Assembly: GCA_041650995.1 (NCBI GenBank)
Contig: JBAZJZ010000001.1
Span: 7,891-71,890, forward strand
DNA: 64,000 nt
Source of the DNA: Patescibacteria group bacterium
Lineage (GTDB): Bacteria; Patescibacteriota; Patescibacteriia; XYB2-FULL-38-15
Direction: 5' to 3'
Positions within the stretch are counted from its first letter, which is position 1, and every line of letters begins with the position of its first letter. Both the position numbers and the translations under genes were made by a program. Shown here piece after piece: positions 824-63,846 of the stretch. Below the pieces are notes generated by a model that saw only the letters and a list, made by a program, of their open reading frames with translations, did no database searches and was not told the DNA's origin.

Positions 824-2146
824 ATGAAAAATATAAAAAATAAAAAAGAAAAAATAACAGCGTCTTCGCCAGAAGAAATGGTCTGTGTGGAATCGTCCGA
901 TAAAGAAGAAGTGGTTTGCGCAAAAGGCGGAGAAGTCGTTAGTGTTGAAGCGAAGGAATCGGAAAAACCGCAAACAAAAAATGGCGGAGTTTGGATTGGC
1001 ACAATAAATTTTTTCGCGGCTCCATATCAGGAGTTAAAAGAAAATTATGAAAAAAAATATGGCCAAGCTAAAAAATTATTTGTCATAGATTTGATTTTGC
1101 TGGGTATCATCGGACTTCTTTTTGGCTTTAATATTTATTTATTTTTAACCAAAACAACTGGCGGCTTGTCTTGGTTTAATTTTCCAGAAATTACAGCTCC
1201 CGGTGATGTTGTTTCCGAGCCGGTTGCCGGCTCGCTGCTTAAAACAGAAATGAAAATAAATGGTGAGGCACAAATAGTTTTAAATCCGGGAGAGGACCTG
1301 GAATATGTTGTTTCTTATTATAATGGCGGGAGTAAAGAACTTTATGACGTCGCTGTAAAAGTAGATTTAGCGGGCGCAGCGGTTGACCTTAGCCAATTTT
1401 CTTTGAGCCAAGGAACTTTGCGCGGCGGGGCAGTTGTTTGGACAAAAGACCAAATACCGGATTTTGTTAAATTATTGCCGGGCAAAAGCGGCGAATTAAA
1501 ATTTAAAGTCAGTACGAGCCAAATTGTGGAACCAGCCAGAGTTTTGAATTTTGGCAGTCTTCTTAAAAGTGAGTTAGAAATTTCTTATAAATTAGAAAGT
1601 AGTTTTGGGGAAGCGCATAATTTCAAAAGCGCCATCCGGGAAGATAAATTTAATTCGGATTTAGTTTTGGGAGATTACGCGAGGTATTACACGCCCGAGG
1701 GCGATCAACTGGGTTTGGGCCCCTTACCGCCGAAAGTCGGGGAGCGAACAACATATTGGGTTTTTTGGAATATAAATAATAATTTGAATGATTTAATCAA
1801 TGTTTCTGTTTCCGCGCTTTTACCGCCAAACGTTTCTTGGACAGGGAGGATGAGTGTGACTTTAGGCCAGCTAAATTACAATTCCGCCCGTCGCCAGATT
1901 AATTGGAAAGTTGGTGAAGTCGGGTGCTACACGGGGGAGGAATGGCCAAAGCTTGGCGTTGCCTTTGAGCTAGCTTTAGTGCCTACTGCGGAACAGCTTG
2001 GAAGCGAGCCGGCCCTTCTTGGCCAAGTTAAAGTTTTTGGAGAAGATAAGTTTACTGGCCAATTTTTAGAAAGAGAGGGGACGGTTCTGACGACAAATTT
2101 AATTTATGATAGTTTGGCGGAAGGAAAGGGGAGGGTGGCGAAGTAA
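824..2146 (+). CDS. hypothetical protein, N-terminal TM-anchored, 440 aa
   Basis: Complete ORF. It has a Lys/Glu-rich N-terminus followed by a hydrophobic helix (LFVIDLILLGIIGLLFGFNIYLFL). The remainder is predicted extracytoplasmic with no recognised motif. A rho-independent terminator follows. Confidence 0.45.
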   Translation: MKNIKNKKEKITASSPEEMVCVESSDKEEVVCAKGGEVVSVEAKESEKPQTKNGGVWIGTINFFAAPYQELKENYEKKYGQAKKLFVIDLILLGIIGLLFGFNIYLFLTKTTGGLSWFNFPEITAPGDVVSEPVAGSLLKTEMKINGEAQIVLNPGEDLEYVVSYYNGGSKELYDVAVKVDLAGAAVDLSQFSLSQGTLRGGAVVWTKDQIPDFVKLLPGKSGELKFKVSTSQIVEPARVLNFGSLLKSELEISYKLESSFGEAHNFKSAIREDKFNSDLVLGDYARYYTPEGDQLGLGPLPPKVGERTTYWVFWNINNNLNDLINVSVSALLPPNVSWTGRMSVTLGQLNYNSARRQINWKVGEVGCYTGEEWPKLGVAFELALVPTAEQLGSEPALLGQVKVFGEDKFTGQFLEREGTVLTTNLIYDSLAEGKGRVAK

Positions 2147-2177
2147 CTGGTAATTAGTAAATAGTAATTGGTAATTA
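2146..2177. repeat. GGTAA heptad-repeat block (NNGGTAA x4)
   Basis: ctggtaa|ttagtaa|atagtaa|ttggtaa|tt, immediately after the stop of 824..2146 and before a terminator hairpin. Confidence 0.75.
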
Positions 2178-2226
2178 AAATTTAAAGCCGGCCGAGAGGC
2201 CGGTTTTTTGTGTTGTAATTGTCCCC

Positions 2227-2255
2227 TTGACAAAACGTTTAAATTTTGCTATGAT
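2227..2255 (+). promoter_or_regulatory. sigma70-type promoter, TTGACA-N17-TATGAT
   Basis: Consensus -35 TTGACA (2227-2232), a 17-nt spacer, and -10 TATGAT (2250-2255) lie immediately upstream of the GT4 gene. This suggests translation may start at the second Met (nt 2306). Confidence 0.55.
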
Positions 2256-2269: not shown

Positions 2270-3451
2270 ATGACAGAAATAGGCCTTTATTATAAGCCTT
2301 TTATTATGCGTATTGCCATGGTTGGACAAAAAGGAATACCAGCTGTCTACGGGGGCATTGAACGCCACGTAGAGGAATTAAGCGCTCGTTTAGCCGAGGG
2401 CGGTTTTGATGTTACGGTTTTTTGCCGGCCGTGGTATGGAAATAAATCAGAAGTAAAAAATGAAAAGTTAAAAGTTTATAAAGGTATTAATCTGGCTTAT
2501 TTGCCATCTTTAAAAACCAAACATTTTGACGCGATTTCTCATACTTTTTTGGCGACGATTTACGCGATGATTGGTAAGTTTGATATTATTCATTATCACG
2601 GTGTTGGACCAGCTTTACTCTCTTTTCTGCCTAGAATTTTTTGTCGCAAAACAAAAGTTATCACCACTTTCCATTGTATTGATCGCAAGCATCAAAAGTG
2701 GGGATTGTTTGCCAAGATTATGCTTCGGGCGGGGGAGTGGGCGGCTTGTCGTTTTGCTCACGAAACAATCACGGTTTCAAAAACCTTACAGCAATATTGC
2801 TCCGAGGCTTATGATAAGGATACGGCTTATGTTCCGAATGGCGTAAACGTGGTGGAGAGTTCTCCAAATCCGTCTTCGGAAATTTTGAAAAAATTTAATT
2901 TGGAAAAGAATAAATATTTATTGATGGTTTCCCGTTTGGTTCGCCACAAAGGCGCGCATTATTTAGTGCAAGCATTTCGCGATCTTAAAGAAAAAGACGC
3001 AACTTTCCGAGATTTGAAGTTGGTTTTTGCCGGGGATTCCGCCTTTACCGATGATTATGTAAAAGAATTAAAAAATTCAGCCAAAGATGATTTAAATATT
3101 GTGTTTGTCGGGTTTCAGTCCGGTCGGCCGCTTGAAGATTTATTTTTGAATTCTTTGGCAGTAGTCCATCCTTCAGAATCAGAAGGATTGCCCATTGCCG
3201 TGCTTGAAGCCATGAGTTATGGAAAAGTTGTTTTGGCCTCGGATATTCCGGAAAATATGGAATTGATTAAAGATTATGGTTTCAGTTTTCAAAATAAAAA
3301 TATCGGCGATTTAACACAACAGCTTAAGGAAGTTTTGCCGCGCCATGATCTTTGGGAAAAAGGAGAAGAAGCAAAAAAATTCGTTGCCAAAAATTACAGC
3401 TGGGATTTTGTTGTCTCGGAAGTGAGAAAAGTTTATCAAAGTTTATATTAA
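2270..3451 (+). CDS. glycosyltransferase family 4 (GT-B fold). The likely true start is at MRIAMVGQKG, nt 2306
   Basis: N-terminal MRIAMVGQKGIPAVYGGIERHVEEL and C-terminal ...HPSESEGLPIAVLEAMSYGKVVLASDIPEN (an EX7E-like motif) are typical of GT4 retaining glycosyltransferases. It is a paralog of 55902..57044. Confidence 0.8.
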   Translation: MTEIGLYYKPFIMRIAMVGQKGIPAVYGGIERHVEELSARLAEGGFDVTVFCRPWYGNKSEVKNEKLKVYKGINLAYLPSLKTKHFDAISHTFLATIYAMIGKFDIIHYHGVGPALLSFLPRIFCRKTKVITTFHCIDRKHQKWGLFAKIMLRAGEWAACRFAHETITVSKTLQQYCSEAYDKDTAYVPNGVNVVESSPNPSSEILKKFNLEKNKYLLMVSRLVRHKGAHYLVQAFRDLKEKDATFRDLKLVFAGDSAFTDDYVKELKNSAKDDLNIVFVGFQSGRPLEDLFLNSLAVVHPSESEGLPIAVLEAMSYGKVVLASDIPENMELIKDYGFSFQNKNIGDLTQQLKEVLPRHDLWEKGEEAKKFVAKNYSWDFVVSEVRKVYQSLY

Positions 3452-10016: not shown

Positions 10017-10039
10017 GTGGTAAAATAAATACAACGGGT

Positions 10040-10300
10040 TGACAGCCTCCACAATAAACACGGACTGACAGCCTTTAGGCTGTTACGATAACACGCTAAA
10101 GCGTGTCACTCCACAATAAACACGGACTGACAGCCTCCACAATAAACACGGACCGACAGCCTTTAGGCTGTTACAATAACACGCTAAAGCGTGTCACTCC
10201 AATTACTTCTATGTTCCCTCAAGATCGTAATGCCCATCGTCCGCCACATTTAAGTGGTAACACCCTAAAGGGTGTCACTCCGGGTGTCACTCCGGACAAT
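10040..10300. repeat. REP-like repeat array, upstream flank of the RAYT gene
   Basis: It contains repeated units of ccacaataaacacggactgacagcc and the double hairpin ACAGCCtttaGGCTGT...ACACGCtaaaGCGTGT, plus a variant ACACCCtaaaGGGTGT. Confidence 0.8.
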
Positions 10301-10789
10301 AATATTTATTTTATTACCGTGAGAACCGTGGATCAAAAACCATATTTTGACGCTGATTTTAAAAAGAAATTATTTTGTCTTTGCCTAAAGGCAGGACTCC
10401 AAAAATTTGAGATTCATTTATACGCCTGGGTGTTGTTGAATAACCATTATCATCTGTTATTTAAGATTCTGTCAGGGGAAAATTTATCTAAATTTATTAA
10501 TTTTATTAACGGCAAAAGCTCTTTTGAACTAAATAAATTGGAGAACGAACAAGGCCGTAAAATTTGGTACCAATATTTTGACCATTGTATTCGCGACGAA
10601 GCTGATTTTTGGAAACATTTTAATTACATTCACCAAAATCCGGTAAAGCATGGTTTGCGCACCGACTTGGCGGGCATTTTTGCTTATCCCTTTTCAAGCG
10701 CGAAAAATTGGAGTAAAATAAAAGGGGAAGAGTGGGTTGATTCGTGTTTTGAACTTTATCCGATTGTTGATTTTATTGCGGGGGAATAA
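10211..10789 (+). mobile_element. REP-associated tyrosine transposase (RAYT; IS200/IS605-like HuH Y1 transposase). The start is uncertain: the ORF is open from 10103 through the repeats
   Basis: It carries the HuH motif (LLNNHYHLLF) and the catalytic Tyr motif (NYIHQNPVKHGL) at the expected spacing. The N-terminal beta-strand region reads IYFITVRT. It is flanked on both sides by REP hairpin arrays, which is the classic RAYT/REP organisation. Confidence 0.75.
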
Positions 10790-10794
10790 CGCCG

Positions 10795-11166
10795 CGGTCG
10801 GAATGACAGCCTTCAGGCTGTTACGATAACACGCTAAAGCGTGTCATTCCACAAAAACATAGATTGACGGTCAGACTGACAGCGCCTGCAACTTTTCGGA
10901 ATGACAGCCTTCAGGCTGTTAAAACTAGATAACACGCTAAAGCGTGTCATTCCACAAAAACATAGATTGACGGTCAGACTGACAGCGCCTGCAACTTTTC
11001 GGAATGACAGCCTTCAGGCTGTTAAAACTAGATAACACGCTAAAGCGTGTCATTCCACAAAAACATAGATTGACGGTCAGACTGACAGCGCCTGCAACTT
11101 TTCGGAATGACAGCCTTCAGGCTGTTATGGTAACACCCTAAAGGCTGTCACTCCGGGTATTACTCC
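10795..11166. repeat. tandem array (~3.5 copies, period 98-103 bp) of REP double-hairpin units, downstream flank of the RAYT gene
   Basis: The unit is ggaatgACAGCCttcaGGCTGTtacgataACACGCtaaaGCGTGTcattccacaaaaacatagattgacggtcagactgacagcgcctgcaacttttc. It repeats head-to-tail at 10801, 10899, 11002 and 11105 (the last copy is partial and variant). Confidence 0.85.
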
Positions 11167-12236: not shown

Positions 12237-12305
12237 CCCTTCGATAAGCTCAGGGCATAATATTTTATGTTATTTAAAAATTAAAAATTATAAAATTTAA
12301 AAATT

Positions 12306-13994
12306 ATGAAGAAGTTTTTTTCAGTTTTAATTTTCTTTTTAATTATAGCGGGTTTTTCTGCGCAGGCATCCGAAACCATCACCGTCACAAACACCTCCGC
12401 TCCGACCGCGATTTTTTACCCCTCGGAGTTTGACAAGTTAGTGATGGATTTTACAATCGCGCGGGCGGATGGAGCAGCTGATGTTTTAAACGCTTTAACT
12501 TTAAAAAATGAAGGAACAGCCTGGGGTTGGGATATTTCTAAAGTTGTGGTTTGGGCGGATATTGGACCAACGGGATTTCAGGGAATGGATATAGACAAAA
12601 AAATAGGCGAAGCAGTGCGTTATGAAACCGGCGGATATTGGTATTTGCAGGCGCTTCAGGAAACTGTACCCGCGACCGGGCTTCGAATTTTCGTAAGTAT
12701 CGAAACGGCATCAAGGAGCGTGATTTCATCCAACAAAACAATGCAAATGAAAGTGCCGGCGCTTGAAGATAGCGGAACAATCGGCAGGTTTGATTTGGGA
12801 GACACGGGTTTGTTTTTGGCTGGAACGACGGGAGTTTCCGAAGGGATTTTGAATCCACACGTTCAAACTATTTGGCCTTCAAACTATGACGCAAGCGCGC
12901 CGAAAACCGTGATTACTTCGCCTTCCGGCGGAGCAACGCTCACTGGCTCAAGTTACAAAATCATGGGCACTTCGCGCGATCAGGGCGGTTCAACTCCGGC
13001 CTCGGTGCAGATTTTAATTTCATCAGGAAGTTCGGCCGGCTCTTGGGTTGATGTCACAAATACCGGAACAAATTATTCAACCTGGGAATACAATTGGACA
13101 AATATTTCCGACGGAACTTATACGATTAAAACTCAGGGGTCGGATTGGATTGGCAATGTGGAGACTCTCGGAGAGGGGATCACAGTGACGGTTGACCAGA
13201 CCGCCGCGACCGCGGTTTCTGCCGCGCTTTCCACGGTTTCCGTTTCGCCGAATGTTTTGACTGCTGATGGCGTAGCAAGAGCTTTTGCCACAGTAACCGT
13301 TAAAAATTCCGCTGGCAGTACGCTTTCCGGGAAAACCGTTACTTTAACTTCAAACCGTTCAACCGATAGCATCACGGCAACAAAAGATTTAACCGGATCT
13401 GATGGCGTGGCTACCTTTGAAATAAAATCAACTTCGGCAGGCGATGCGACACTAAAGGCCATGGTCGGAACTGTAGAAATTTCAGAGCAGCCGGTTATAA
13501 CTTTTACTGCGGTAACTTTTGCCGCGGGAGATTTGATCAAAGGGTCTGGCAGCACCGCTGTTTACTATTACGCGGAGAATGGCAGAAGATATATTTTCCC
13601 GACCGCTGCGACTTATTCTTCCTGGTTTTCTAATTTTTCTTCAATTAAAACAATTTCCGACGCAGAACTCGCTTCAGTGCCGACAACCGGAAACGTGACA
13701 GTTCGTCCTGGAAAATTAGTCCAAATCGTGAGCATGGATACGCCGTGGAAAGTAATGGATCCCAAAGTTTATGCCGTAAGCCGCGAGGGAGTTTTACACT
13801 GGATTAAAACCGCCGAGGTGGCCGTCGCGATTTTTGGAGCGAACTGGGAGAGCCAAATCATTGCCGTGCCAGAAGTTTTTTCTACAAATTATAATTACGG
13901 CGCGGATATTTCCGCTACCGCCGATTATAATCTTTCCGCCGAGCAGGCGATAGCGACGATTGACGAGGATAAAAGAGCATGGGTGACGGAGTAA
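12306..13994 (+). CDS. secreted surface protein (562 aa) with a Big_1-type Ig-like domain and the C-terminal conserved ~150-aa module
   Basis: It has a signal peptide (MKKFFSVLIFFLIIAGFSAQA). A Big_1/invasin-like segment is present (SVSPNVLTADGVARAFATVTVKNSAGSTLSGKTVTLTS...DGVATFEIKSTSAGDATL). The C-terminal domain is GDLIKGSGSTAVYYYAENGRRYIFP...VRPGKLVQIVSMDTPWKVMDPKVYAVSREGVLHWI. Confidence 0.7.
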   Translation: MKKFFSVLIFFLIIAGFSAQASETITVTNTSAPTAIFYPSEFDKLVMDFTIARADGAADVLNALTLKNEGTAWGWDISKVVVWADIGPTGFQGMDIDKKIGEAVRYETGGYWYLQALQETVPATGLRIFVSIETASRSVISSNKTMQMKVPALEDSGTIGRFDLGDTGLFLAGTTGVSEGILNPHVQTIWPSNYDASAPKTVITSPSGGATLTGSSYKIMGTSRDQGGSTPASVQILISSGSSAGSWVDVTNTGTNYSTWEYNWTNISDGTYTIKTQGSDWIGNVETLGEGITVTVDQTAATAVSAALSTVSVSPNVLTADGVARAFATVTVKNSAGSTLSGKTVTLTSNRSTDSITATKDLTGSDGVATFEIKSTSAGDATLKAMVGTVEISEQPVITFTAVTFAAGDLIKGSGSTAVYYYAENGRRYIFPTAATYSSWFSNFSSIKTISDAELASVPTTGNVTVRPGKLVQIVSMDTPWKVMDPKVYAVSREGVLHWIKTAEVAVAIFGANWESQIIAVPEVFSTNYNYGADISATADYNLSAEQAIATIDEDKRAWVTE

Positions 13995-14039
13995 TTGGTA
14001 ACTGGTAAATAGTAATGGGTAATCATGGATATCGGGTCA

Positions 14040-14530
14040 AAATTTTTCCCCTCTTAAGATAAGAGGGGATTAAGGGGAGTTATGAAAATGCCTCGTTTGT
14101 GTAATAATGTTGTCATTAAAATAAGGCGGCGTATTCTGCGTAAAAACCAAACTGATGCAGAAAGAAAATTGTGGAGTATATTGCGAAACAAGCAAACGGA
14201 CAACTTAAAATTTTTTCGTCAGTATAGTGTCAGCCATTACATTCTTGATTTTTACTGCCCTAAACATAAGTTGGCCATTGAACTCGACGGCGGGCAGCAT
14301 GGAGAGGAGAAACAAAAGGCACATGATGACTAGCGTACTGGATATCTTCAACAATATAAGATTTATGTCCTGAGATTTTGGGATGATGAGGTGTTAACTA
14401 ATCTAGATGGAGTGGCGATGAGTATAAAAGAAAAAATTGATGGCCGTTCATAACCCCTCCCAACCTCCCCTTATCTTAAGGGGAGGGGAAAATCTCGTTA
14501 CTTATTACCCGTTACCCATTACATTCAAAT
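14040..14530. mobile_element. inverted-repeat-bounded mini-element carrying a DUF559 gene (putative non-autonomous or degenerate mobile element)
   Basis: The left arm (13991-14080) is gtaattggtaactggtaaatagtaatgggtaatc...ttttcccctcttaagataagaggggattaaggggag. The right arm (14455-14525) is its imperfect reverse complement (cccctccccttatcttaaggggaggggaaaatc...gttacttattacccgttacccattac). Each arm contains a GGTAA-heptad block and a G/C-rich palindrome. Confidence 0.4.
14082..14453 (+). pseudogene. DUF559 (Vsr-like, restriction-endonuclease-fold) domain protein interrupted by an in-frame TAG at 14331-14333
   Basis: The 83-aa ORF (..LRKNQTDAERKLWSILRN...FFRQYSVSHYILDFYCPKHKLAIELDGGQHGEEKQKAHDD*) continues in the same frame after the TAG (RTGYLQQYKIYVLRFWDDEVLTNLDGVAMSIKEKIDGRS*). 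Together they give a full-length ~125-aa DUF559 protein (R..Q..IG.YI.DFYC...KL.IE.DG..H ... V.RFWN.EV). Confidence 0.65.
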
Positions 14531-28262: not shown

Positions 28263-29474
28263 ATGAAGATAGCAATTATTTCTCCGGTTTTTCCGCCGTA
28301 TCGTGGCGGGATTGGAACGGCGGCGTACACCGAAGCGCGAGAATTGGCGCGCCGTGGCCATGACGTTTCGGTTTTTGTGCCGCGTCGACCGGGAGGCCAG
28401 GGCCATGAATTAAAAGAAAAATTTAAACTCTTTTGCCCCGGGCCGTTTTTAAGATATGGCAACGCCGCTTTTTTGCCGCAGCTTCGATGGAAATTAAAAA
28501 ACTTTGATGTGATTCATCTGCATTACCCATTTTTCGGCGGAGCAGAAGTGGTTTATAAGTTAAAAGTTAAAAGTGAAAAGTTAAAAGTTGGGACAAAATT
28601 AGTTATTACTTATCATCATGACGTCGTGGGTAGTGGCTGGCTCGGGAAAATATTTCGTTGGCATACAAAAAATTTAATGCCGAAAATTTTGGGGCGAGCG
28701 GATAAAATTATTGTTTCATCGCTTGATTACGCAAAAAATTCAAATGTCAAAGAAATTTTAGAAAAAAATCCGGAGAAATTTGTTGAAGTTCCTTTCGGTG
28801 TGGACACAGAAAAATTTGCGCCAGCTGAGGCAAAGCAAGATCTTTTTAAAAAATTTAATCTGTTTGCCACTCGGACGATTTTATTTGTCGGCGGGCTGGA
28901 CCGAGCGCATTATTTTAAGGGATTAGAAGTTTTGATTAAGGCAAGGGCAGAAGTGGCGAACGCTAAAATTTTGGTAGTGGGCGACGGTGATCTTCGGCCG
29001 CATTATGAAAAAATGGTGGAAGAATTAAATTTGAAAGACCAAGTAATTTTTGCCGGTTCGGTCACGGCAAAAGATTTACCGGATTATTATAATCTGGCCG
29101 ATGTTGTGGTTTTGCCCTCACTTGACCAGTCCGAAGCGTTTGGCATAGTTTTAATTGAAGCGGCGGCTTGCGGCAAGTCAATAATCGCTTCAAATCTTCC
29201 CGGCGTTCGGAGTGTAGTTCAATACGGCGTGAACGGGTTTACTTTCCCGCCGGGCAATGCCAAAGAGCTCGCGGAAAAAATAAATTATTTTTTAGATAAT
29301 CCCGCCGCGGCCAAAGATTTTGGCAAACACGGCCGGGAAATAGTTTTGGAAAAATATGATTTAAAAAAAGTGGGGGAGAGGTTAGAATCTGTCATTGCGA
29401 GCGCCGTAGGCGCGTGGCAATCTTATTCCAATGATAACGACGGGATTGCTTCGTCGCTACGCTCCTCGCAATGA
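28263..29474 (+). CDS. glycosyltransferase family 4
   Basis: MKIAIISPVFPPYRGGIGTAAYTEARELARRGHDV...PSLDQSEAFGIVLIEAAACGKSIIASNLPG is the GT4 EX7E region. The C-terminal 27 aa are encoded by an inserted GTCATTGCGAG palindromic repeat pair. An in-frame AAGTTAA heptad block lies at 28557-28592. Confidence 0.8.
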   Translation: MKIAIISPVFPPYRGGIGTAAYTEARELARRGHDVSVFVPRRPGGQGHELKEKFKLFCPGPFLRYGNAAFLPQLRWKLKNFDVIHLHYPFFGGAEVVYKLKVKSEKLKVGTKLVITYHHDVVGSGWLGKIFRWHTKNLMPKILGRADKIIVSSLDYAKNSNVKEILEKNPEKFVEVPFGVDTEKFAPAEAKQDLFKKFNLFATRTILFVGGLDRAHYFKGLEVLIKARAEVANAKILVVGDGDLRPHYEKMVEELNLKDQVIFAGSVTAKDLPDYYNLADVVVLPSLDQSEAFGIVLIEAAACGKSIIASNLPGVRSVVQYGVNGFTFPPGNAKELAEKINYFLDNPAAAKDFGKHGREIVLEKYDLKKVGERLESVIASAVGAWQSYSNDNDGIASSLRSSQ

Positions 29475-41201: not shown

Positions 41202-41272
41202 CAGATTAATTAGTGATTGCTAATAAGTGATTTTTTAATAATCAGTTTACTCGTTACCTGTTACGCGTTACT
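41189..41272. repeat. heptad-repeat blocks (reverse orientation, TTACNNG x4, plus ATTAGTG-type)
   Basis: attagtg|attgcta|ataagtg ... ttactcg|ttacctg|ttacgcg|ttacttc, followed by the bidirectional hairpin cgGGAGTTcaaaAACTCCCttttt. Confidence 0.7.
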
Positions 41273-42427
41273 TCAATACGGGAGTTCAAAAACTCCCTTT
41301 TTGTTTCCGATAATACCGGAAAAATAAATGCTTTGCTTGGCTCCATCTACAAAAAAATTATTGAGCTCTTCTGGAGTTATAAGATCCAATACGTTCCTCT
41401 GATCGCGTTCATCAAGTTCAATAATTTTGATGGTTCCGCCAAGAAGGACAGCAATATAATTTTCATTAATCCACCCTATTTTTTTTATTTCCTGCCCATA
41501 ACGACTGACAAATATTTTTTTATCAGCGGAAAAGTCGTAAACCCAGATTTCAAAATCAATAGTATAGAGAAGTTTTTTTCCATCTGCTGACCAGGCAAAT
41601 TGGTCAGCCTTTGTTTCAAAGAGAGCTTCCAACGAAGTAGGGCGAACCACAGAAAGATTTTTTGTTTTTTGATCAAGGACGGCGACTACGCCGGAATATC
41701 CCGCCGAGACATCTAAATCCGGAAGAAGATGAGCGTCGGCGATATTTATAGGAACGCCCTTGAAAGTAAAATAAAAATCAGACAGTTTTTGATAGACTGA
41801 AATTTCATTATTTCCCGGATTTATCATAATATATTTATGAGTTTGAGGTGCCTCGGAGAAGTCAATAGTAATCAGAATTTTTTGGTTATCATTGCTCCAT
41901 TCCAAATTAACAATATTACTTTTTTCTTCAGAAATTCTGTAAATTAAACTGCTTTTATTATTTTTAAAATTTAAAAGCCAGATTTCATCTCCAGTTTCTT
42001 TTTTATTTAGGTAAATAATTTTTTCCTTGTTAGGCGCGAGACTGAATAATTCCGAATTGGTCTCTACAACTTCGGCGGGTAATGTTTTTTCAAAGAGAGT
42101 AATATTTTCCGCGAAAGTAGTCAGGCTGCTTTCTACGGGAAGAATTTTTTGCCAAGGATAAAAATTTTTCTTTTCAATTTTGATGGTATAATCATCGGGA
42201 AGGAGATTCGCGATTCTGGCTGGAGTTTTTTCTGTTCGTAATTTTCCGTTTAAGTAAATTTCTGCTCCTGCCGGATTTGATTTTAAAATTAAAATTCCGG
42301 TTTTTTGGATTCTGTTGGTTTGGAAATTATAACGATATCCAGCCGTATAGAGAATAACGACAGGAGTAATTAATAAAAATATTATGATGAATGCCAGGTA
42401 AACTATTCGACGGAAAGGAAGGGTCAT
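41273..42427 (-). CDS. PEGA-domain protein with an N-terminal TM anchor and a C-terminal beta-propeller-like region
   Basis: It has a TM helix (IVYLAFIIIFLLITPVVILYTAGY) and a PEGA motif (ILILKSNPAGAEIYLNGKLRTEKTPARIANLLPDDYTIKIEKKNFYPW). Confidence 0.55.
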   Translation of the reverse strand: MTLPFRRIVYLAFIIIFLLITPVVILYTAGYRYNFQTNRIQKTGILILKSNPAGAEIYLNGKLRTEKTPARIANLLPDDYTIKIEKKNFYPWQKILPVESSLTTFAENITLFEKTLPAEVVETNSELFSLAPNKEKIIYLNKKETGDEIWLLNFKNNKSSLIYRISEEKSNIVNLEWSNDNQKILITIDFSEAPQTHKYIMINPGNNEISVYQKLSDFYFTFKGVPINIADAHLLPDLDVSAGYSGVVAVLDQKTKNLSVVRPTSLEALFETKADQFAWSADGKKLLYTIDFEIWVYDFSADKKIFVSRYGQEIKKIGWINENYIAVLLGGTIKIIELDERDQRNVLDLITPEELNNFFVDGAKQSIYFSGIIGNKKGVFELPY

Positions 42428-45901: not shown

Positions 45902-45974
45902 TCTTTGCAACCTGAAAGGTGTAACTCATCAAAACCATGAGTTATAAGTTTTAAGTTGTAAGTTTCAAGATATT

Positions 45975-48580: not shown

Positions 48581-48865
48581 TTACGCTTTCTTGGGGAGGA
48601 CATTCACGATTTTGGTCAGACGTAAATGTCCATCAAATTTTGTTTTCTTCTTCGTAGCGAATTTGACCATACCGTCAGCAACTGAATACAAAGTATCATC
48701 ACTGCCGCGCCGGACATTTTGTCCGGGATGAATTTTTGTGCCGCGTTGGCGGACTAAAATACAGCCGGGATGGGCCATCTGGCCTTCGGTCATTTTTACG
48801 CCTAATCTTTGAGCTTGTGAATCGCGGCCTAAACTAGTAGAACCGCCTGCTTTTTTATGAGCCAT
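48581..48865 (-). CDS. rpmA: 50S ribosomal protein L27 (true start at MAHKK; the ORF-track N-terminal extension derives from tandem repeats)
   Basis: [24 protein letters not shown]...[16 protein letters not shown] is the L27 signature. Confidence 0.9.
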
Positions 48866-48867
48866 AT

Positions 48868-48925
48868 TTTTTAGCCGATAAGCTAATAAGCTGGTAAGCC
48901 GATAAGCTAATAAGCTGGTAAATTG
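48868..48925. repeat. 2.3 tandem copies of a 24-bp unit (GCCGATAAGCTAATAAGCTGGTAA), heptad-structured, in the rpmA leader
   Basis: agccgataagctaataagctggtaagccgataagctaataagctggtaaattgataag, immediately 5' of the rpmA start. Confidence 0.8.
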
Positions 48926-49071
48926 ATAAGTTTCAGATGTTTTATATGTTATCAAAGAGTTTTTAGGCTGTCAACCTTATTTTAGGTCTACCCTTGAATT
49001 TAAAAGATAAATGAGATATAATTGAAAAATAGATTAAAGATTTTTGGTTAAAAAATAAACAAAATAAATAT

Positions 49072-49929: not shown

Positions 49930-51129
49930 ATGAAGCGAATATATTTTGATCATTCGGCTACGACGTCAGTTGACCCGCAAGTTTTGCGGGCGATGTTGCC
50001 GTATCTAAAAAATAATTTTGGCAACGCGTCGTCGCTTCATTTTTTTGGTCAAAAAGCGCGAATCGGGGTCGAAAAAGCGCGGGAGCAAGTGGCAAAATTT
50101 TTGTCTTGCAAATCTAAGGAAATTATTTTTACTTCTGGAGGGACAGAAAGTAATAATCTGGCGATAGTTGGTTTTGTCCGTCGGGCGCGCGCGCTTGATC
50201 CGAAAAGAAAAATTCACGTAATCACTTCGGCGATTGAACATCCGGCGGTTTTTGAGGTTTGTCGCGAATTAAAAAAAGAAGAAGTTGAAGTTACATATTT
50301 GCCTGTCAGTCGCAAGGGAATAGTAAAATTGGAAGATTTCAAAAAGGCAATTCAGCCAGAAACGATTTTAGTTTCCATAATGTATGTTAATAATGAAGTC
50401 GGCACAATCCAGCCGATACAAGAAATTAGCCGGATTGTCAAAGAGGTAAACGCCGGTCGCGGTAATGAAGACAAAATTTATTTTCATACCGACGCGGTTC
50501 AGGCGGTAAATTTTTGTAATTGCCGAGTTGATTTTTTGGGAGTTGATATGTTATCTTTTTCGGCACACAAAATTTACGGACCAAAGGGAACGGGTATTCT
50601 TTTTGTGCGAGAAGGCACGCCACTTTTCCCAATTATTTTTGGTGGCCATCAGGAACGGGGGATCCGCTCCGGGACGGAAAATGTCGCGGGGATAGTTGGG
50701 CTTGGCAAGGCAGTGGAACGATTGAGTGAAAAGTTAAAAGTTAAAAGTGAAAATTTAAGGATAAAAAAATTGCGTGATAAATTGGTAAAGGGAGTTTTAC
50801 AAAAGATTCCCGGCGTAATTTTTAACGGTGATTTAAAACAGCGTGTACCGGGAAATATTAATTTCTGTTTCAAAAATGTAGAGGGTGAGAGTATTTTATT
50901 GATGCTTGACATGGAAGGCATCGCCATCTCTACTGGTTCAGCTTGCTCTTCCGGATCGCTTGAGCCGTCGCACGTCCTTTCCGCCATGGGAATTTCTCCA
51001 GAGATTTCTCACGGAAGCGTGCGCATCACTTTAGGAAAAAACAATACCGAAGAAGAAGTGCGCCGCTTAATTAAAGTATTGCCTGGCATTGTGGCGAAAT
51101 TACGCGAGATGTCGCCCATCAAAAACTAG
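49930..51129 (+). CDS. nifS: cysteine desulfurase (NifS/IscS type)
   Basis: IYFDHSATTSVDPQVLRAMLPYL; a PLP lysine region (SFSAHKIYGPKG); catalytic Cys (STGSACSSG). An in-frame AAGTTAA heptad block lies at 50727-50755. Confidence 0.9.
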   Translation: MKRIYFDHSATTSVDPQVLRAMLPYLKNNFGNASSLHFFGQKARIGVEKAREQVAKFLSCKSKEIIFTSGGTESNNLAIVGFVRRARALDPKRKIHVITSAIEHPAVFEVCRELKKEEVEVTYLPVSRKGIVKLEDFKKAIQPETILVSIMYVNNEVGTIQPIQEISRIVKEVNAGRGNEDKIYFHTDAVQAVNFCNCRVDFLGVDMLSFSAHKIYGPKGTGILFVREGTPLFPIIFGGHQERGIRSGTENVAGIVGLGKAVERLSEKLKVKSENLRIKKLRDKLVKGVLQKIPGVIFNGDLKQRVPGNINFCFKNVEGESILLMLDMEGIAISTGSACSSGSLEPSHVLSAMGISPEISHGSVRITLGKNNTEEEVRRLIKVLPGIVAKLREMSPIKN

Positions 51130-57067: not shown

Positions 57068-58177
57068 ATGCATAATTCTTTTTCATTGGGGAGAATTAAA
57101 AATATAGAAATAAAAATTCATTTTTCTTGGTTTTTAATTTTATTTCTTATTGTCTGGTCGCTGGCGGAATTTTATTTTCCCGCAAATTATCCCGGCTGGA
57201 CGCAAACAGCTTATTGGCTTTCCGGCAGCATCGCCGCGTTTTTGCTTTTTGTGTCCGTTTTGCTTCATGAGCTTTCTCATTCATTCGTGGGTAAGAGAAA
57301 AAATATTATTGTAAAAAGCATAACTCTGTTTGTTTTTGGGGGCGTGGCGGAAATGGTGAGCGAGCCGAAGAAGCCGGCTGATGAATTTGATATGGCAATC
57401 GCTGGTCCGATTGCGAGCATTGTTTTGGCCGGATTTTTTTGGGGAATTACCGGTTTTGAAATCGGCGTTGCTGGCGTGGCTATTGCTCATTATCTTTTTT
57501 TGATAAATGGTATTTTGGCGGTATTCAATTTAATTCCCGCTTTTCCTCTGGATGGCGGCAGAATTTTTCGTTCGGCGCTTTGGGCAAAATATAAAGATAT
57601 TGAAAGAGCAACTCGTCGGGCGGTCGGCGCAAGCCGTTTTATCGCGTTTCTTTTTACTCTTTGGGGAATTAAATTACTGCTTGAAAATAATTTTTTGAGC
57701 GGGGTATGGATAATTTTAATCAGTTGGTTTCTTCTCCAAGCCGCTGGATCAAGTTTAAAACAGCAAAGAATGGAAGAAGTGCTTTCGCGGTTTAATATTG
57801 GACGAATTATGGAAAAGGATTTTAAAAGTGTTCCGCCCGAGATGTTGCTTAAAGATTTGGCAAAGGCTTTTTTGGATTATAAACAAGGCGGATTCCCCGT
57901 TGAAGAAAATGATCAACTTATTGGTATTGTTACAATTGAAGATTTAAGGAGAACGCCGCGGACAAAATGGTCAAAAATTAAAGTGGGAGAAATAATGACC
58001 GGAGCGGAAAAGCTTTTAACGCTTCGAACGAACGATACGGCTTACGATGCTTTCTTGAAAATGGCCAATAATGAGTTTGGTCGTTTACCGGTTGTGGAGA
58101 ATAATAAGGTTGTTGGCCTTGTGACCAGAAATTCCATCATTTTGCTTTTAGCCGTGAAGTGCGACAAGTGTGTTTAG
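57068..58177 (+). CDS. site-2 protease (M50) family metalloprotease with tandem CBS domains
   Basis: It has HExxH (LLHELSHSFV), FPLDGGRIF, and two C-terminal CBS modules (IGIVTIEDL..., VGLVTRNSII). Confidence 0.8.
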   Translation: MHNSFSLGRIKNIEIKIHFSWFLILFLIVWSLAEFYFPANYPGWTQTAYWLSGSIAAFLLFVSVLLHELSHSFVGKRKNIIVKSITLFVFGGVAEMVSEPKKPADEFDMAIAGPIASIVLAGFFWGITGFEIGVAGVAIAHYLFLINGILAVFNLIPAFPLDGGRIFRSALWAKYKDIERATRRAVGASRFIAFLFTLWGIKLLLENNFLSGVWIILISWFLLQAAGSSLKQQRMEEVLSRFNIGRIMEKDFKSVPPEMLLKDLAKAFLDYKQGGFPVEENDQLIGIVTIEDLRRTPRTKWSKIKVGEIMTGAEKLLTLRTNDTAYDAFLKMANNEFGRLPVVENNKVVGLVTRNSIILLLAVKCDKCV

Positions 58178-58244
58178 ATTTAATTTATAAATAAAAATTG
58201 ACAACTGACAACTTACAACTTGAAGTTTTTAAATTCAACGCCAG

Positions 58245-58853
58245 TTGTTTGTCGTCAGTCGTCTGTCGTTAGTCAAAAACATGATTAATCAAAAATTATT
58301 TCAGAGTTTAAAAAAAGAGTTTGAATTTTACGGAGAAGAAAGAAGAAAATTGATTGGGGTTTCCAATGAAGCGTTGATGAGGGCAAAGCAGGCGATTTTT
58401 GCTTTTCACCGGAATGATTTAAAAGGTGGCAATGCATTGCTCGCCGAGGTGGAGAAGATTTTTTTAGATTTGGAAAAAAAGTTTAAACAAGAGCCGGAGT
58501 TGCGTTACGAGGGGGCGTATAGGGCGGCGCTTGAAGAATATGTGGAAGCGAAATTTTTTGGGAGATTTTTGGAAGATGGAAAAATAGATTTTATAAAAGG
58601 GACGGAAATTGATGCCGATACTTACTTGGGTGGGATTTGTGATTTTACCGGTGAACTTGTTCGGAAAGCGGTTCTCGCGGCCACGGAGAAAAAATTTAAA
58701 AAGGTTGAAGAATTTGTGGCGGGAGTCCGCGATGTGATCGGCGAGTTGATCAAAATTAATTTGACTGGATATTTGCGGACAAAATACGATCAGGCTAAAC
58801 AAAATTTGCGGCGAGCGGAAGAAGTTTTGTATGATGTGAAGATGAGGGAGTAG
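58245..58853 (+). CDS. hypothetical all-alpha protein, possibly translin-family (likely start at MINQ, nt 58281)
   Basis: DTYLGGICDFTGELVRKAV resembles the translin/TRAX Y..G..D..GEL.R motif. This is weak, memory-based. Confidence 0.35.
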   Translation: MFVVSRLSLVKNMINQKLFQSLKKEFEFYGEERRKLIGVSNEALMRAKQAIFAFHRNDLKGGNALLAEVEKIFLDLEKKFKQEPELRYEGAYRAALEEYVEAKFFGRFLEDGKIDFIKGTEIDADTYLGGICDFTGELVRKAVLAATEKKFKKVEEFVAGVRDVIGELIKINLTGYLRTKYDQAKQNLRRAEEVLYDVKMRE

Positions 58854-58871
58854 GGGTTCATGATATAAAAT

Positions 58872-58950
58872 TTAATTACTTAATTACTAGTTACCAATTA
58901 CTCTATGGTTAGTATAATTTGGTAATTAGTAAATAGTAACTGGTAATTAA
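58872..58950. repeat. inverted pair of GGTAA-type heptad-repeat blocks
   Basis: aattact|agttacc|aattact ... ttggtaa|ttagtaa|atagtaa|ctggtaa|tt: a reverse-oriented block followed by a forward block. Confidence 0.75.
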
Positions 58951-58971
58951 TGTTTTTGTTTTTAGTAATTT

Positions 58972-59382
58972 ATGCCAAAAGAAATTTCCGCCGGAGCAGT
59001 AATCTTTAAACGCAACGGCGAAATAAAATATTTGCTTTTGCGCTACGAATCCGGACATTGGGATTTTCCGCGGGGAGCGATTGAGATTGGGGAAAAAGAA
59101 GAAGACACGGTCGTGCGGGAAGCAAAAGAAGAAACGGGAATTTCCGATTTGGTTTTTTTTCCTTTATTCCGGGAGAAAATTTTTTGGTTTTATAAAAAGG
59201 AAGGAAGAACAATTTACAAAGAAGCGATTTTTTATTTAGCCGAAACAAAAATGGAAGAGGTGAAGCTTTCCGATGAGCACGTTGATTTTAAATGGCTGCC
59301 TTACGCGGAGGCGATGGAACAGATTACTTTTCCAAATGGGAAAAAGGTTTTAGAGAAGGCAAATGAATTTTTAAATAAATAA
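58972..59382 (+). CDS. NUDIX hydrolase
   Basis: It has the Nudix box (GAIEIGEKEEDTVVREAKEETGI). Confidence 0.85.
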   Translation: MPKEISAGAVIFKRNGEIKYLLLRYESGHWDFPRGAIEIGEKEEDTVVREAKEETGISDLVFFPLFREKIFWFYKKEGRTIYKEAIFYLAETKMEEVKLSDEHVDFKWLPYAEAMEQITFPNGKKVLEKANEFLNK

Positions 59383-61159: not shown

Positions 61160-61162
61160 AAT

Positions 61163-62500
61163 ATGGAATTTAAAGATAAAAAAATAACTGTAATGGGGCT
61201 CGGCCTTTTGGGGCGGGGAGTTGGTGTTGTAAAATATTTAGCGGGAAAGGGTGCGAGAGTGACTGTAACTGATTTAAAGAGTGCGAAAGATTTGGCGTTG
61301 TCAGTTCGGGAAATTAAAAAATTTTTGAAAAATAAAAAGGGAGCGTATCCGGTTAAATTTATCTTAGGAAAACATCGACTGCAAGATTTTAAAAATGTTG
61401 ATATGGTTTTTAAGGCCGCAGGCGCGCCGCTTAATTCGCCTTTTATTGCCGAAGCCAAGAAAAATGGAGTGCCAATTTTTATGGATGATGCATTATTTGC
61501 CCGCGAGACAGAAGGTAAAATTATTGGCATTACGGGAACGCGCGGAAAAACAACGACCTCAAATTTAATTTATGAAATTGCCAAAGCAACCGGTAAAAAA
61601 ACGTATTTCGGCGGCAATGTCCGTGGCATGGCCACGCTTCCGCTTTTAGAGAAAGTTAAAAAAAATGATCTCGCGGTTTTGGAACTTTCAAGCTGGCAAC
61701 TGCAGGGTTGGCGGGATTTAAAAATTAGTCCGGAAATTTCAGTCGTAACAAATATTTATCCCGACCACCAGAACTATTATAAAAATAGTATGGCAAAATA
61801 TGTTTATGATAAAGAAGCAATTTTTGCCAATCAGAAAAAAAATGATTTTTTGGTGTTGAATAAAAATTGCGCATGGTGCAAGAAAATGGCGAAACGGGCG
61901 CCAAGCAAAGTGGTTTGGTTTTCCTTAAACGACGTTTCACGCAAATGGAAAATAAAAATTTTAGGAGAACATAATTTAGAAAATGTTGCCGCAGCCGTGG
62001 CAGTGGGAAAAATTTTAGATTTGCCCACAGTGAAAATAAAAAAGGCCGTGGAAAACTTTCGTGGAGTTCCTGGTCGGCTAGAATTTGTGCGTGAGATTCA
62101 CGGCGTGAAATATTATAATGATACGACAGCTACGATGCCCGAGGCGACGATCGCGGCGTTGCGAGCGATTGGTGGAATAAATATTGTTTTGATCGCCGGC
62201 GGAGCGGACAAGAATTTGAATTTTAAAAATCTGGCGCCGGAAATTAAAAAATATACCAAGGCAGTCGTGCTTTTATCTGGCACCGCGACCCCCAAACTCC
62301 AAAAGCAATTACTAATTACCAATTACCGATTACCAATTATTGTCGTCCGCAGTATGTCTGACGCCGTCGAAACCGCGCAAAAATTTGCCACACGCGGCGA
62401 CGTGGTCTTATTGTCTCTCGCCGCCGCCAGTTTTGGAATGTTTAAAAATGAGTTTGATAGAGGAGATCAATTTTTGAGAGAAGTTAAAAAAATAAAATGA
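61163..62500 (+). CDS. murD: UDP-N-acetylmuramoylalanine--D-glutamate ligase
   Basis: KITVMGLGLLGRGVGVVKYL...GITGTRGKTTTS...DTTATMPEA. A GTAAT heptad block is inserted in-frame at 62300-62340. Confidence 0.9.
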   Translation: MEFKDKKITVMGLGLLGRGVGVVKYLAGKGARVTVTDLKSAKDLALSVREIKKFLKNKKGAYPVKFILGKHRLQDFKNVDMVFKAAGAPLNSPFIAEAKKNGVPIFMDDALFARETEGKIIGITGTRGKTTTSNLIYEIAKATGKKTYFGGNVRGMATLPLLEKVKKNDLAVLELSSWQLQGWRDLKISPEISVVTNIYPDHQNYYKNSMAKYVYDKEAIFANQKKNDFLVLNKNCAWCKKMAKRAPSKVVWFSLNDVSRKWKIKILGEHNLENVAAAVAVGKILDLPTVKIKKAVENFRGVPGRLEFVREIHGVKYYNDTTATMPEATIAALRAIGGINIVLIAGGADKNLNFKNLAPEIKKYTKAVVLLSGTATPKLQKQLLITNYRLPIIVVRSMSDAVETAQKFATRGDVVLLSLAAASFGMFKNEFDRGDQFLREVKKIK

Positions 62501-63846
62501 ATATAAAAGAATTAATAAAAAAAATTATTCCGGGATTTTTGCTCCGGTGGTATCATAAGACGCTCGCTCTCGCGGCGAATATTTTTTATGGTTTTCCATC
62601 AAATAAACTCGTAGTGATTGGTGTGACCGGCACGAACGGAAAATCCACGACCGTGCACTTAATCGCAAAAATGTTTGAGGGTGCCGGTTTTAAAGTCGGG
62701 TCAACTTCTACGGTTGGTTTTAAAGTGGCGGACAAAGAATGTTTGAATAAAAAAAAGATGACCATGCTCGGCCGATTTGCTTTGCAAAAATTATTGCGGC
62801 GAATGGTCGCGGCCGGATGTCGGTACGCGGTTATTGAGACGTCTTCGCAAGGCGTAGAGCAATTCAGGCATCTCGGCGTAAATTATGATGTCGCGGTTTT
62901 TACTAATTTAACACCAGAACATATTGAAGCACACGGGGGCTTTCTTAATTATAAAAAAGCCAAAGGGAAATTTTTCGCGCATCTGACGGCGAAGCCAAAA
63001 AAAATGATTGACGAGAAAACGGTGTCCAAAGTTAGTGTGGTAAATCTTGATGACGAGCATGCGGAATATTTTGCGGAATTTCCGGCGGATGAAAAATATG
63101 GTTATAAAATCCAAAATCCAAAATTACAAATTCCAAATAAATTTCAAAATCCAAATTTCAAAATTGTTGAAGCCGAAAATGTGGAAATGGGGCCAGGCGG
63201 TTCCATCTTTAAGCTTCAAACTTCCAACTTCATAATTCATTTGTTGGGCGAATTTAATGTTTATAATTCTTTGGCTGCGGCGGCAGTCGGTTTGTCGCAA
63301 GGATTAAGTCTGGAAATTATTTCAAAATCACTGGCAGAAGTTCGCGGTGTGCCAGGTCGGATGGAGTTTATTGATGGAGGACAGAATTTTAAAATTTTAG
63401 TTGATTACGCGCCAGAGCCGGCTTCAATGGAAAAACTTTATGAAACCGCGTGTGGTCCGCAATTTATGGTTTCTAGAGGAAAAATTATTCATGTCCTCGG
63501 TTCGGCTGGCGGCGGGAGAGATAAATCTCGTCGGCCGATTTTGGGACGAATCGCCGGAGAGAACGCCGACTATGTTATAATTACGAACGAAGATCCCTAC
63601 GATGAAAATCCAATGGAAATTATAAATCAAGTGGCGGCCGGAGCGACGAGCAAAGAAGATGGTGTGAATTTATTTAAAATTTTGGACCGCGGCGAAGCTA
63701 TTACTAAGGCATTAAGTCTTGCCCGTGAAAACGATTTGGTGATTATTACCGGCAAGGGATCGGAGCAGGCGATTTGCGTAGCCAATAATAAAAAAATTCC
63801 ATGGGATGACCGGGGAAAAGTCAGGGAAATTTTAAGAAAAAAATAA
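62497..63846 (+). CDS. murE: UDP-N-acetylmuramoyl-tripeptide synthetase (Mur ligase, MurE-like)
   Basis: VIGVTGTNGKSTTVHLIAKMF...TNLTPEHIEAHGGF...DYAPEP. An in-frame AAATCCA heptad block (63106-63165) encodes YKIQNPKLQIPNKFQNPNFKI. Confidence 0.8.
   Translation: MNIKELIKKIIPGFLLRWYHKTLALAANIFYGFPSNKLVVIGVTGTNGKSTTVHLIAKMFEGAGFKVGSTSTVGFKVADKECLNKKKMTMLGRFALQKLLRRMVAAGCRYAVIETSSQGVEQFRHLGVNYDVAVFTNLTPEHIEAHGGFLNYKKAKGKFFAHLTAKPKKMIDEKTVSKVSVVNLDDEHAEYFAEFPADEKYGYKIQNPKLQIPNKFQNPNFKIVEAENVEMGPGGSIFKLQTSNFIIHLLGEFNVYNSLAAAAVGLSQGLSLEIISKSLAEVRGVPGRMEFIDGGQNFKILVDYAPEPASMEKLYETACGPQFMVSRGKIIHVLGSAGGGRDKSRRPILGRIAGENADYVIITNEDPYDENPMEIINQVAAGATSKEDGVNLFKILDRGEAITKALSLARENDLVIITGKGSEQAICVANNKKIPWDDRGKVREILRKK

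Follow-up and report, generated by a model that had tools for sequence, protein, structure and literature searches.

Short tandem arrays of 7-nt units were identified in a 64,000-nt stretch of the genome of a Patescibacteria group bacterium (assembly GCA_041650995.1, contig JBAZJZ010000001.1, positions 7,891 to 71,890), which was analysed as a whole and is hereafter called the window. These heptad arrays lie in intergenic spacers and inside several genes, including murD, murE and a nifS/iscS-type cysteine desulfurase gene, and they recur in related genomes. In murD and nifS, the units of an array change together between relatives at constant array length, which requires a DNA-level homogenising process acting on arrays of fixed length. 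About 89% of the window is coding. The window also matches ENA contig ERZ27247363:k141_335293 (161.6 kb). Its MurD is identical to a protein of a metagenome-assembled Patescibacteria group bacterium, the closest named relatives of this MurD are from Candidatus Falkowbacteria, and the host lineage is Falkowbacteria-like Patescibacteria. Pfam and PDB comparisons confirm the names given to the array-bearing genes in a preliminary description of this DNA. Above the Rfam threshold, only one tRNA was found within the window, with no match at the arrays. The source genome was examined over the window and 8.5 kb beyond it, and 19 loci of relatives were added. Labels such as L002, L004, L005 and L139 denote loci of relatives, and L001 is the window's own genome, reaching past the window end.

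Period 7 is the sole strongly enriched tandem period of the window. For lags of 4 to 15, self-similar blocks were counted over comparison stretches fixed at 21 or 28 nt, at approximately 80–85% self-match. Lag 7 yielded 8–11 blocks, most other lags yielded 0–2, and lag 14, the double heptad, yielded up to 5. Local dinucleotide shuffles (n = 40) contained approximately no period-7 blocks. The motif (GTAA-N3)x3, GTAANNNGTAANNNGTAA, occurs 17 times in 8 arrays, compared to 0.00 expected. Counts of 4-mers found three times at a fixed spacing reach 60 at period 7 and 4–22 at periods 5, 6, 8, 9 and 10, with GTAA and TTAC making up 17 of the 39 non-trivial period-7 cases. As in known heptanucleotide long simple-sequence repeats (SSRs), the units stand head to tail, at least three per array, as seen in the Tandem Repeats Finder rows and unit lists, and the period exceeds chance. 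All 13 stretches listed in the preliminary description hold the sequences claimed for them, and the excess at lag 7 over other lags and shuffles bears out its view that the blocks are a real DNA-level family and not random low complexity. Two further arrays were found, one at 2451-2476 in a second GT4 gene and one at 58242-58274, the inverted partner of 58196-58222. Some extra blocks returned by the detector are merely A-rich (827-857, 12272-12296). The repeat before rpmA, which had been counted as a family member, has a period of 8/24 rather than 7 and lies in the rpmA 5' leader.

The same period dominates in related genomes. In relatives at 66–86% MurD identity (19 loci, 208 kb), 40 period-7 blocks were found, or 19.3 per 100 kb, with 0–4 blocks at other periods. 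In Patescibacteria at 44–52% identity (67 loci, 660 kb), 25 period-7 blocks were found, or 3.8 per 100 kb, and period 7 is still the commonest. The lineage of the window is especially rich in such arrays. The family had been called genome-wide; in the source genome this could be tested over the window and the 8.5 kb beyond it, and the 19 loci of relatives show a like enrichment. The arrays are not assembly artefacts, since those that were compared do not differ between assemblies made independently from near-identical strains.

Each unit consists of a fixed 4-base core, either GTAA/TTAC or an A-rich core, and three variable bases. Among 70 units of the murD array from 14 genomes, TTAC is 84–99% invariant and the first three bases vary. 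The variable triplets of the GTAA units include TTG, TTA, ATA, CTG and others, and shifted registers of these arrays were rare in a word census of the window. Other unit families, including AAGTTAA, AAAATCC and TGACAAC, are also present. The arrays are short, with 3–5 units. Approximately 11 of 18 arrays fall in the non-coding 11% of the window (binomial P = 3e-7). Arrays with GTAA on the sense strand contain TAA in each of the three frames. The preceding gene takes its stop codon from the array at 2143 and at 13991, and a stop codon directly precedes the arrays at 26110 and 41271 (minus strand). The arrays at 26110, 45937 and 58922 end 6–22 nt upstream of the next ATG. Such proximity to a start codon is absent for the arrays at 2143, 13991 and 41244 and present for one array in L002. 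The arrays inside genes (murD, murE, nifS/iscS and two GT4 genes) are of types, or in an orientation, that contain no stop codons.

Blocks were confirmed inside essential genes (those for MurD, MurE and the cysteine desulfurase), where they yield 7-residue-periodic peptides, and the reading frame is intact over the in-gene arrays in every genome examined. The 23-mer AAGTTAAAAGTTAAAAGTGAAAA, described as common to the GT4 and nifS blocks, has exact copies at 28557 and 50731, which are read in the same frame. These in-gene blocks had been proposed to be in-frame insertions, and the alignments with orthologues separate them into two classes. In murE, the segment is a lineage-specific loop insertion that adds 13 residues relative to L004 and L005 and is also found in L002. 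The 7-residue-periodic block described there is present, in a degenerate form (67% matches, 14% indels). Among the 36 orthologues compared, the loop stands out as a hot spot, with the short form in several close relatives and varied heptad-type peptides in others, and in a predicted structure the insertion maps to a low-confidence coil (206-220) between two strands. The GT4 array at 28552 also differs in length, being shorter in L130 by exactly 21 nt, that is, 3 units or 7 residues; the GT4 of L132 (64% identity) has the same array length with other units. In contrast, the murD and nifS blocks are not insertions, as outgroups have non-repeat sequence of equal length. The murD block has the same length in 34 relatives, including such outgroups at 56–60% identity, and its product forms a helix end, a turn and a strand start in a predicted structure with a per-residue confidence score (pLDDT) of approximately 90. 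The nifS segment is constant in length among relatives and is 2 residues longer than in solved structures. Further heptad insertions are found in murD and murE of relatives, such as (AAAATTC)5, encoding KIQNSKFKIQN, and (AAATGTC)n, encoding KCQMSNV.

Units change in concert without a change in length at the nifS site, where L139 carries a perfect (AGTCAAA)4 and L142 a perfect (AATCAAA)4. The window has the four units given in Table 1, L002 has AGTCAAA AGCCAAA AGCCAAA AGTCAAA and L004 has no repeat, and the length is equal in all five. At the murD site, the array has five units and a constant total length in 14 genomes, and the units differ between genomes; the types include YAATTAC, YCGTTAC, alternating TCATTAC/CCGTTAC, GCGTTAC, AAATTAC and GAATTAT. 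Relative to the window type, the L139 type has CG in place of AA at positions 2-3 of three of the five units and CG in place of GA in a fourth. The murD units span three codon phases, so that parallel base changes produce different substitutions (I to V, N to R and R to S), a pattern that selection on the protein cannot yield. Unit identity is 0.764 within a genome versus 0.728 between orthologous units, and none of 5000 permutations reached the observed value. The array length is constant in murD and nifS because these genes must stay in frame. Units that change together at fixed length indicate a homogenising process at the DNA level, and plain slippage by 7 or 21 nt is therefore not the whole story.

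Table 1. Heptad arrays of the window, the genes that carry them and a neighbouring repeat of another period.
Feature	Position	Strand	Remarks
CAATTAC TAATTAC CAATTAC CGATTAC CAATTAT in murD	62306..62340	+	TTAC orientation, no stops; encodes QLLITNYRLPII
Degenerate AAAATCC-type array in murE	63103..63165	+	Encodes KIQNPKLQIPNKFQNPNFKI
AAGTTAA-type array in GT4 gene 28263..29474	28552..28590	+	Encodes KLKVKSEKLKVG
AAGTTAA-type array in GT4 gene 2270..3451	2451..2476	+	Encodes NEKLKV
AGTGAAA AGTTAAA AGTTAAA AGTGAAA in nifS/iscS	50724..50755	+	Encodes SEKLKVKSEN
GTAACTG GTAATTA GTAAATA GTAATTG GTAATTA	2143..2177	+	TAA of first unit is stop of open reading frame (ORF) 824..2146
GTAA-core array, 5 units	13991..14025	+	TAA of first unit is stop of Big_1-domain ORF 12306..13994
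GTAA-core array, 4 units (TTAC on + strand)	14495..14522	-	Non-coding, downstream of truncated DUF559 gene
GTAA-core array filling epimerase-to-GT2 spacer	26110..26150	+	Stop at 26109; 8 nt to ATG at 26157
GTAA-core array, 4 units	41244..41271	-	Directly after TGA stop of minus-strand PEGA-domain gene 41273..42427
TAAGTTN array in rplI-to-pyrG spacer	45937..45969	+	TAA in three frames; ends ~6-9 nt before ATG at 45975
Inverted pair, (TGACAAC)3 and GTTGTTT/GTCGTCA units	58196..58274	+	Between M50 protease and Translin-family genes
Inverted pair AATTAC / GTAATT in Translin-to-NUDIX spacer	58872..58950	unstranded	Long hairpin
Octamer nnTAAGCT (~7 units) / 24-nt tandem repeat, not of the family	48868..48930	unstranded	Directly upstream of minus-strand rpmA start
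MurD	61163..62500		Pfam/PDB comparison
MurE	62497..63846		Pfam/PDB comparison
Class-V aminotransferase / cysteine desulfurase (nifS/iscS)	49930..51129		Pfam/PDB comparison
GT4 glycosyltransferases, two	2270..3451 and 28263..29474		Pfam/PDB comparison
rpmA (ribosomal protein L27)	48581..48868	-	

Array positions in murD, murE, nifS/iscS and the GT4 gene are fixed across dozens of sequenced relatives, and spacer arrays are gained and lost among relatives. The array in the epimerase-GT2 spacer is found in the window only and is absent from L130 and L132. The Translin-NUDIX spacer measures 118 nt in the window versus 23–31 nt in relatives, with three GTAA units in the 31-nt spacer of L002 and no array in the approximately 25-nt spacers of L004 and L005. 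The ftsE-ftsX spacer holds a 93-nt inverted AATTAC/GTAATT pair in the window's genome (L001 15845-15937, past the window end) and is 4–6 nt long in L002 and L005. In L004, the same spacer (16624-17031) contains a 23S_rRNA_IVP-family (PF05635) gene between inverted TAGAAAn / nTTTCTA arrays. The spacer between the M50 protease and Translin-family genes carries a different inverted heptad pair in L004, ACAAATT/AATTTGT. Inverted pairs fold as long hairpins, with z-scores of -2.9 (58196-58274), -3.6 (58872-58950) and -4.9 (a pair in L004); folding is confined to them, and single direct arrays show no significant secondary structure. A simple terminator scan at 57900-59200 detected none, as the stems there are AT-rich. 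A canonical hairpin with a T-run terminator is located downstream of the 2143 array, at approximately 2187-2209.

Two side observations concern these spacers. Heptad arrays flank the bacterial Translin-family gene (58245-58853; Pfam E = 8.7e-22) in most of the clade genomes examined (also in L002, L004, L128 and L129). The loop of the inverted pair at 58872-58950 contains a promoter-like match, TTACCA-16-TATAAT (10/12), at 58891-58918 upstream of the NUDIX gene; its -35-like hexamer forms part of a TTAC unit, and such matches are no commoner than in shuffles.

Variation among strains was compared in four near-identical pairs, and no array differences were found at any array examined. L005 and L006 differ by 20 single-nucleotide polymorphisms and no indels, L002/L003 and L129/L144 are identical, and L139/L140 are 98.4% identical. 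Strain-level length variation of the phase-variation kind, which had been raised as a possibility, is thus absent from these four pairs. A metagenome collection that does not include the source species was also scanned for strain-level variants, and the 24-mer adjoining the murD array had no match there. When (GTAA-N3)x4-GTAA was searched in one genome per species, the matches listed included cyanobacteria, Chloroflexota, Bacteroidota, Planctomycetota, Omnitrophota and other Patescibacteria, most often with the unit GTAATTG. In this cross-phylum set, separate arrays within one locus share their variable triplet in 25/63 pairs, compared to 4.7% between loci, and arrays within the L129 genome likewise share units. 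The order of units, in contrast, is not shared in excess: among the GTAA arrays of the window the longest shared run is 2 units, which is reached by 88% of shuffles. Block copying between 2150-2177 and 58922-58949, approximately 27/28 identical by eye, was considered and gained no support from this unit-shuffle test.

These blocks are heptanucleotide simple-sequence repeats of an already described kind, which includes long SSRs, short tandemly repeated repetitive (STRR) sequences and TAACTGA repeats, and the TAACTGA repeats are the closest described. TAACTGA units form direct repeats in marine Beggiatoaceae, cyanobacteria and Bacteroidetes, with no evident mechanism (MacGregor, 2015; PMC4679880). 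Like the arrays here, they are short (2–6 units, sometimes more), contain TAA in the heptamer, are mostly intergenic and are scattered across phyla (PMC4679880). Their forward arrays similarly place stops in three frames and overlap the upstream stop codon, their location just before starts is matched by some of the arrays here, and their reverse arrays are translated within ORFs, in MurG in that study (PMC4679880) and in murD, as QLLITNYRLPII, here. The two differ in several respects. The unit described here is a degenerate GTAA plus three variable bases, of which GTAACTG is one variant, whereas TAACTGA repeats are defined by that unit, with related heptamers rarely repeated. Further differences are the Patescibacterium host, the placement of arrays mid-sequence in essential enzymes and not at protein ends alone, and the documented joint change of units at fixed length. 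The TAACTGA study reported one indirect repeat (PMC4679880), against the common inverted pairs of the present arrays.

The preliminary description regarded a 7-bp period as unusual; on the contrary, heptamers are reported to outnumber all other long SSR classes in most prokaryotic genomes, with polymerase slippage as the proposed and standard hypothesis (Mrazek, 2007, as cited in PMC4679880 and PMC4692102). Slippage was among the mechanisms suggested in the preliminary description; the other two, a periodic DNA-binding protein and sequence-specific insertion, are rivals to it. As far as that survey is represented in these later papers, its long heptamer SSRs resemble the arrays here in being an over-represented period among longer units and patchy across phyla. 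It is older than the Patescibacteria genomes, and it places units of a multiple of three most often in coding regions, whereas 7-nt units are found inside conserved genes here. The GGGAATC repeats of Xanthomonas and GGGGA(T/C)T repeats of Nostoc are likewise genome-specific heptamer families that vary between related species at one intergenic site and form convergent inverted pairs (Rehm et al., 2015; PMC4692102). The Xanthomonas (GGGANTN)n unit also combines conserved and variable positions, mostly with four units per array (PMC4692102). Unlike the AT-rich arrays described here, which lack G-runs and in several cases lie in genes, these repeats are G-rich, quadruplex-capable and studied as intergenic (PMC4692102). 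The STRR sequences of Calothrix PCC 7601, as cited in the same paper (PMC4692102), are dispersed tandem heptanucleotide families as well, from another phylum. GTAATTG-type arrays themselves are common in cyanobacterial genomes among the matches listed. The named STRR units, CCCCAGT, TTGGTCA and CAACAGT, differ from the units here. The small dispersed repeats that Elhai and colleagues reportedly described in Nostoc in 2008 are said to be tiny hairpin elements nested in tandem heptamers, sometimes in genes, and by that account resemble the 21–33-nt GC-rich hairpin inserts in the murD array of L002 and L142. No description of heptanucleotide or simple-sequence repeats in Patescibacteria or the candidate phyla radiation was found in the literature, a weak sign of absence given the incomplete coverage of that search. 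A diversity-generating retroelement was also considered. Position 6 of the unit, an A, is nearly invariant, positions 1–3 vary among all bases, and neither a template repeat nor a reverse transcriptase was seen in the loci. This candidate was rejected because the variation is not adenine-specific.

We give about an even chance to an explanation by misalignment-driven repeat dynamics filtered by reading-frame selection. The arrays would arise, and keep their units alike, when repeat units misalign as DNA is synthesised or repaired. Slippage by whole units would alter their number. A transient misalignment by one unit followed by realignment, or short-patch conversion, would spread a base change to neighbouring units at constant length. 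Selection would then set where arrays survive, and the pattern of placement itself is observed. Sense GTAA arrays, with TAA in three frames, are restricted to spacers, from the upstream stop often up to the next start. TTAC-orientation and stop-free A-rich arrays persist in tolerant gene segments, where the only length changes seen are of 21 nt (7 codons) or none. Inverted pairs form hairpins in spacers. The presence, enrichment and clade-wide spread of the arrays, their placement, the 21-nt indel, the murE insertion and the length-neutral concerted change are demonstrated; we infer misalignment or conversion as the mechanism and a lack of dedicated function. Several observations weigh against this reading. 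Plain slippage explains neither the 4-base core that is 84–99% invariant while the other three bases vary, nor the sharing of the variable triplet between separate arrays (25/63 pairs versus 4.7% between genomes). A single 7-nt slip in murD or nifS would be a frameshift, and 21-nt steps homogenise only units that are three apart; a conversion-like step is therefore assumed, and none has been observed. The inverted pairs of approximately 80–95 nt, in spacers that measure 4–31 nt in close relatives, look more like block insertion than like growth in place. The arrays are short (3–5 units), and the four near-identical strain pairs show no differences in unit number.

The fixed core, the genome-specific units, the block-like inverted pairs and the length-neutral homogenisation thus keep explanations by a binding protein or a micro-mobile element in contention. 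If the arrays were functional cis-elements, they would offer one site per 7 nt to a single-stranded RNA- or DNA-binding protein, such as a cold-shock protein, ribosomal protein S1 or the Translin-family protein of the clade. They would tune termination, mRNA processing or translation start, and the stops in all frames would act as an insulator between packed genes. An invariant core with three variable positions across sites and genomes, a preferred unit in each genome and the long hairpins of inverted pairs are consistent with this explanation. Isolated spacer arrays are mostly sense and extend from the stop codon to 4–22 nt before a start, with no obvious Shine-Dalgarno sequence, a placement also reported for TAACTGA repeats (MacGregor, 2015; PMC4679880). 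Arrays are found in 4/19 of the spacers adjoining Translin-family genes versus 4/133 other spacers (P = 0.009, ignoring shared ancestry and spacer length), an enrichment confounded by those two factors. Eukaryotic translin binds single-stranded repeat DNA and RNA. However, arrays are present or absent at one spacer among relatives of approximately 85% protein identity, and no array is conserved as a regulatory site. The same repeats occur within coding regions, where a role is hard to picture, and one site has wholly different units in different genomes (TGACAAC, ACAAATT and GTTACGC). We consider a cis-element role unlikely. The arrays could also be very small mobile elements, or their footprints or landing pads, notably the inverted pairs, possibly mobilised near TTAC by a Y1 transposase of the IS200/IS605-like or REP-associated tyrosine transposase (RAYT)-like type; REP denotes repetitive extragenic palindromic. 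TTAC is a target of IS608-type elements. The inverted pairs appear as ~80–95-nt insertions relative to spacers of 4–31 nt, and the L004 ftsE-ftsX spacer has a 23S_rRNA_IVP gene, compared with an 'empty' inverted AATTAC pair at that place in L001. In two genomes with differing array types, GC-rich hairpins of 33 nt and 21 nt follow directly after the third TTAC|C of the murD array, and a Y1_Tnp gene in L004 is flanked by REP-like hairpins that also occur at window 10034-11160. Arrays of one genome share units. Nevertheless, no near-identical dispersed copies with defined ends, as in REP, REPIN (paired REP hairpins) or miniature inverted-repeat transposable elements, were found, the sharing of unit order among the window GTAA arrays is no greater than in shuffles, and no target-site duplications are recognisable. 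Units change in place at a site, without length change in murD and nifS. At orthologous spacers, inverted pairs occur in some relatives and not in others, and nothing ties the Y1_Tnp of L004 to the arrays. We consider a mobile origin quite unlikely.

Contingency loci, in which hypermutable repeats switch genes on and off by unit number, appear very improbable. As with the phase-variable SSRs of Haemophilus and Neisseria, tandem repeats are located in or beside cell-envelope genes (GT4, GT2 and mur), and the GT4 array differs by 3 units between relatives. Unlike those SSRs, the arrays show no length difference in the four strain pairs, keep the frame in every genome examined, are short with heterogeneous units and occur in housekeeping genes. 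Random low complexity of an AT-rich genome and a side effect of selection for repetitive peptides are both practically negligible as explanations. A few detector blocks are indeed merely A-rich (827-857 and 12272-12296), but chance is refuted by the near-zero count in shuffles and the 0–2 blocks at most other periods, and peptide selection cannot give a DNA periodicity across three codon phases with parallel base changes and unlike amino-acid changes. A more speculative proposal, and something of a long shot, is that sequence-directed upkeep, for example by a single-stranded nucleic acid-binding reader of (GTAA-N3)n, with the Translin-family protein as one candidate, or by a Y1 transposase landing on TTAC, actively maintains the arrays in place of passive slippage. 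If this were true, heptad arrays would be self-propagating, self-homogenising micro-elements that colonise and persist in essential genes.

Several other features of this DNA were noted. In the GT4 gene 28263..29474, approximately the last 23 residues (...AVGAWQSYSNDNDGIASSLRSSQ; 29385-29474) form a C-terminal extension that is lacking in all 22 aligned relatives. A palindromic element with ends GTCATTGCGAG ... CTCGCAATGAC encodes the extension, which looks like a small inverted-repeat element that entered the gene at its 3' end. In-frame GC-rich inserts occur in murD and murE of relatives (P0011/P0017/P0025, P0027/P0036 and P0269/P0278). These include the 33-nt and 21-nt hairpin elements directly after the third TTAC|C of the murD array (L002 11165-11197; L142), and longer inserts translate as GLRQAQAINLFPERAKRVEG..., VYPHTNKEIGANFLADEAGANNR... 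and PLRSAQGINLSPEQ...; they are small elements inside essential genes, seen in relatives and not in the window. The region 10034-11160 contains a cluster of REP-like twin-hairpin units (GGAATGACAGCCTTCAGGCTGTTA / TAACACGCTAAAGCGTGTCATTCC), in which a 103-nt unit is present in 3.3 tandem copies (10798-11127) and an 88-nt unit in 1.8 (10040-10201). Like hairpins flank a Y1_Tnp (IS200-like) gene in L004 (3255..3788), and this arrangement suggests a REPIN/RAYT-like system in the clade. The DUF559 endonuclease-like gene at 14082-14541 seems truncated, with 83 residues covering profile positions 6-71 of 109, and the fragment PSQPPLILRGGE is located downstream in another frame; the gene is probably a pseudogene. 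A 153-nt tandem repeat at 24276-24609 (2.2 copies, 87% matches), inside ORF 22823..25051, presumably encodes a repeated protein domain.

Reports of heptanucleotide repeats in bacteria go back decades, and the questions that they raise are why the unit has 7 nt, why each genome prefers its own units and how the arrays spread. Heptamer repeats were known before from cyanobacteria, Xanthomonas and Beggiatoa; here a joint change of units without a change in gene length can be demonstrated. Such arrays give rise to stop-codon cassettes and to peptide segments peculiar to a lineage, which can mislead gene calling and alignment in Patescibacteria. The murD and nifS sites separate homogenisation from expansion and contraction, and the concerted change at these sites points to a conversion-like or templated step. 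This clade of Patescibacteria is thus an unusually clean natural experiment on heptad arrays.

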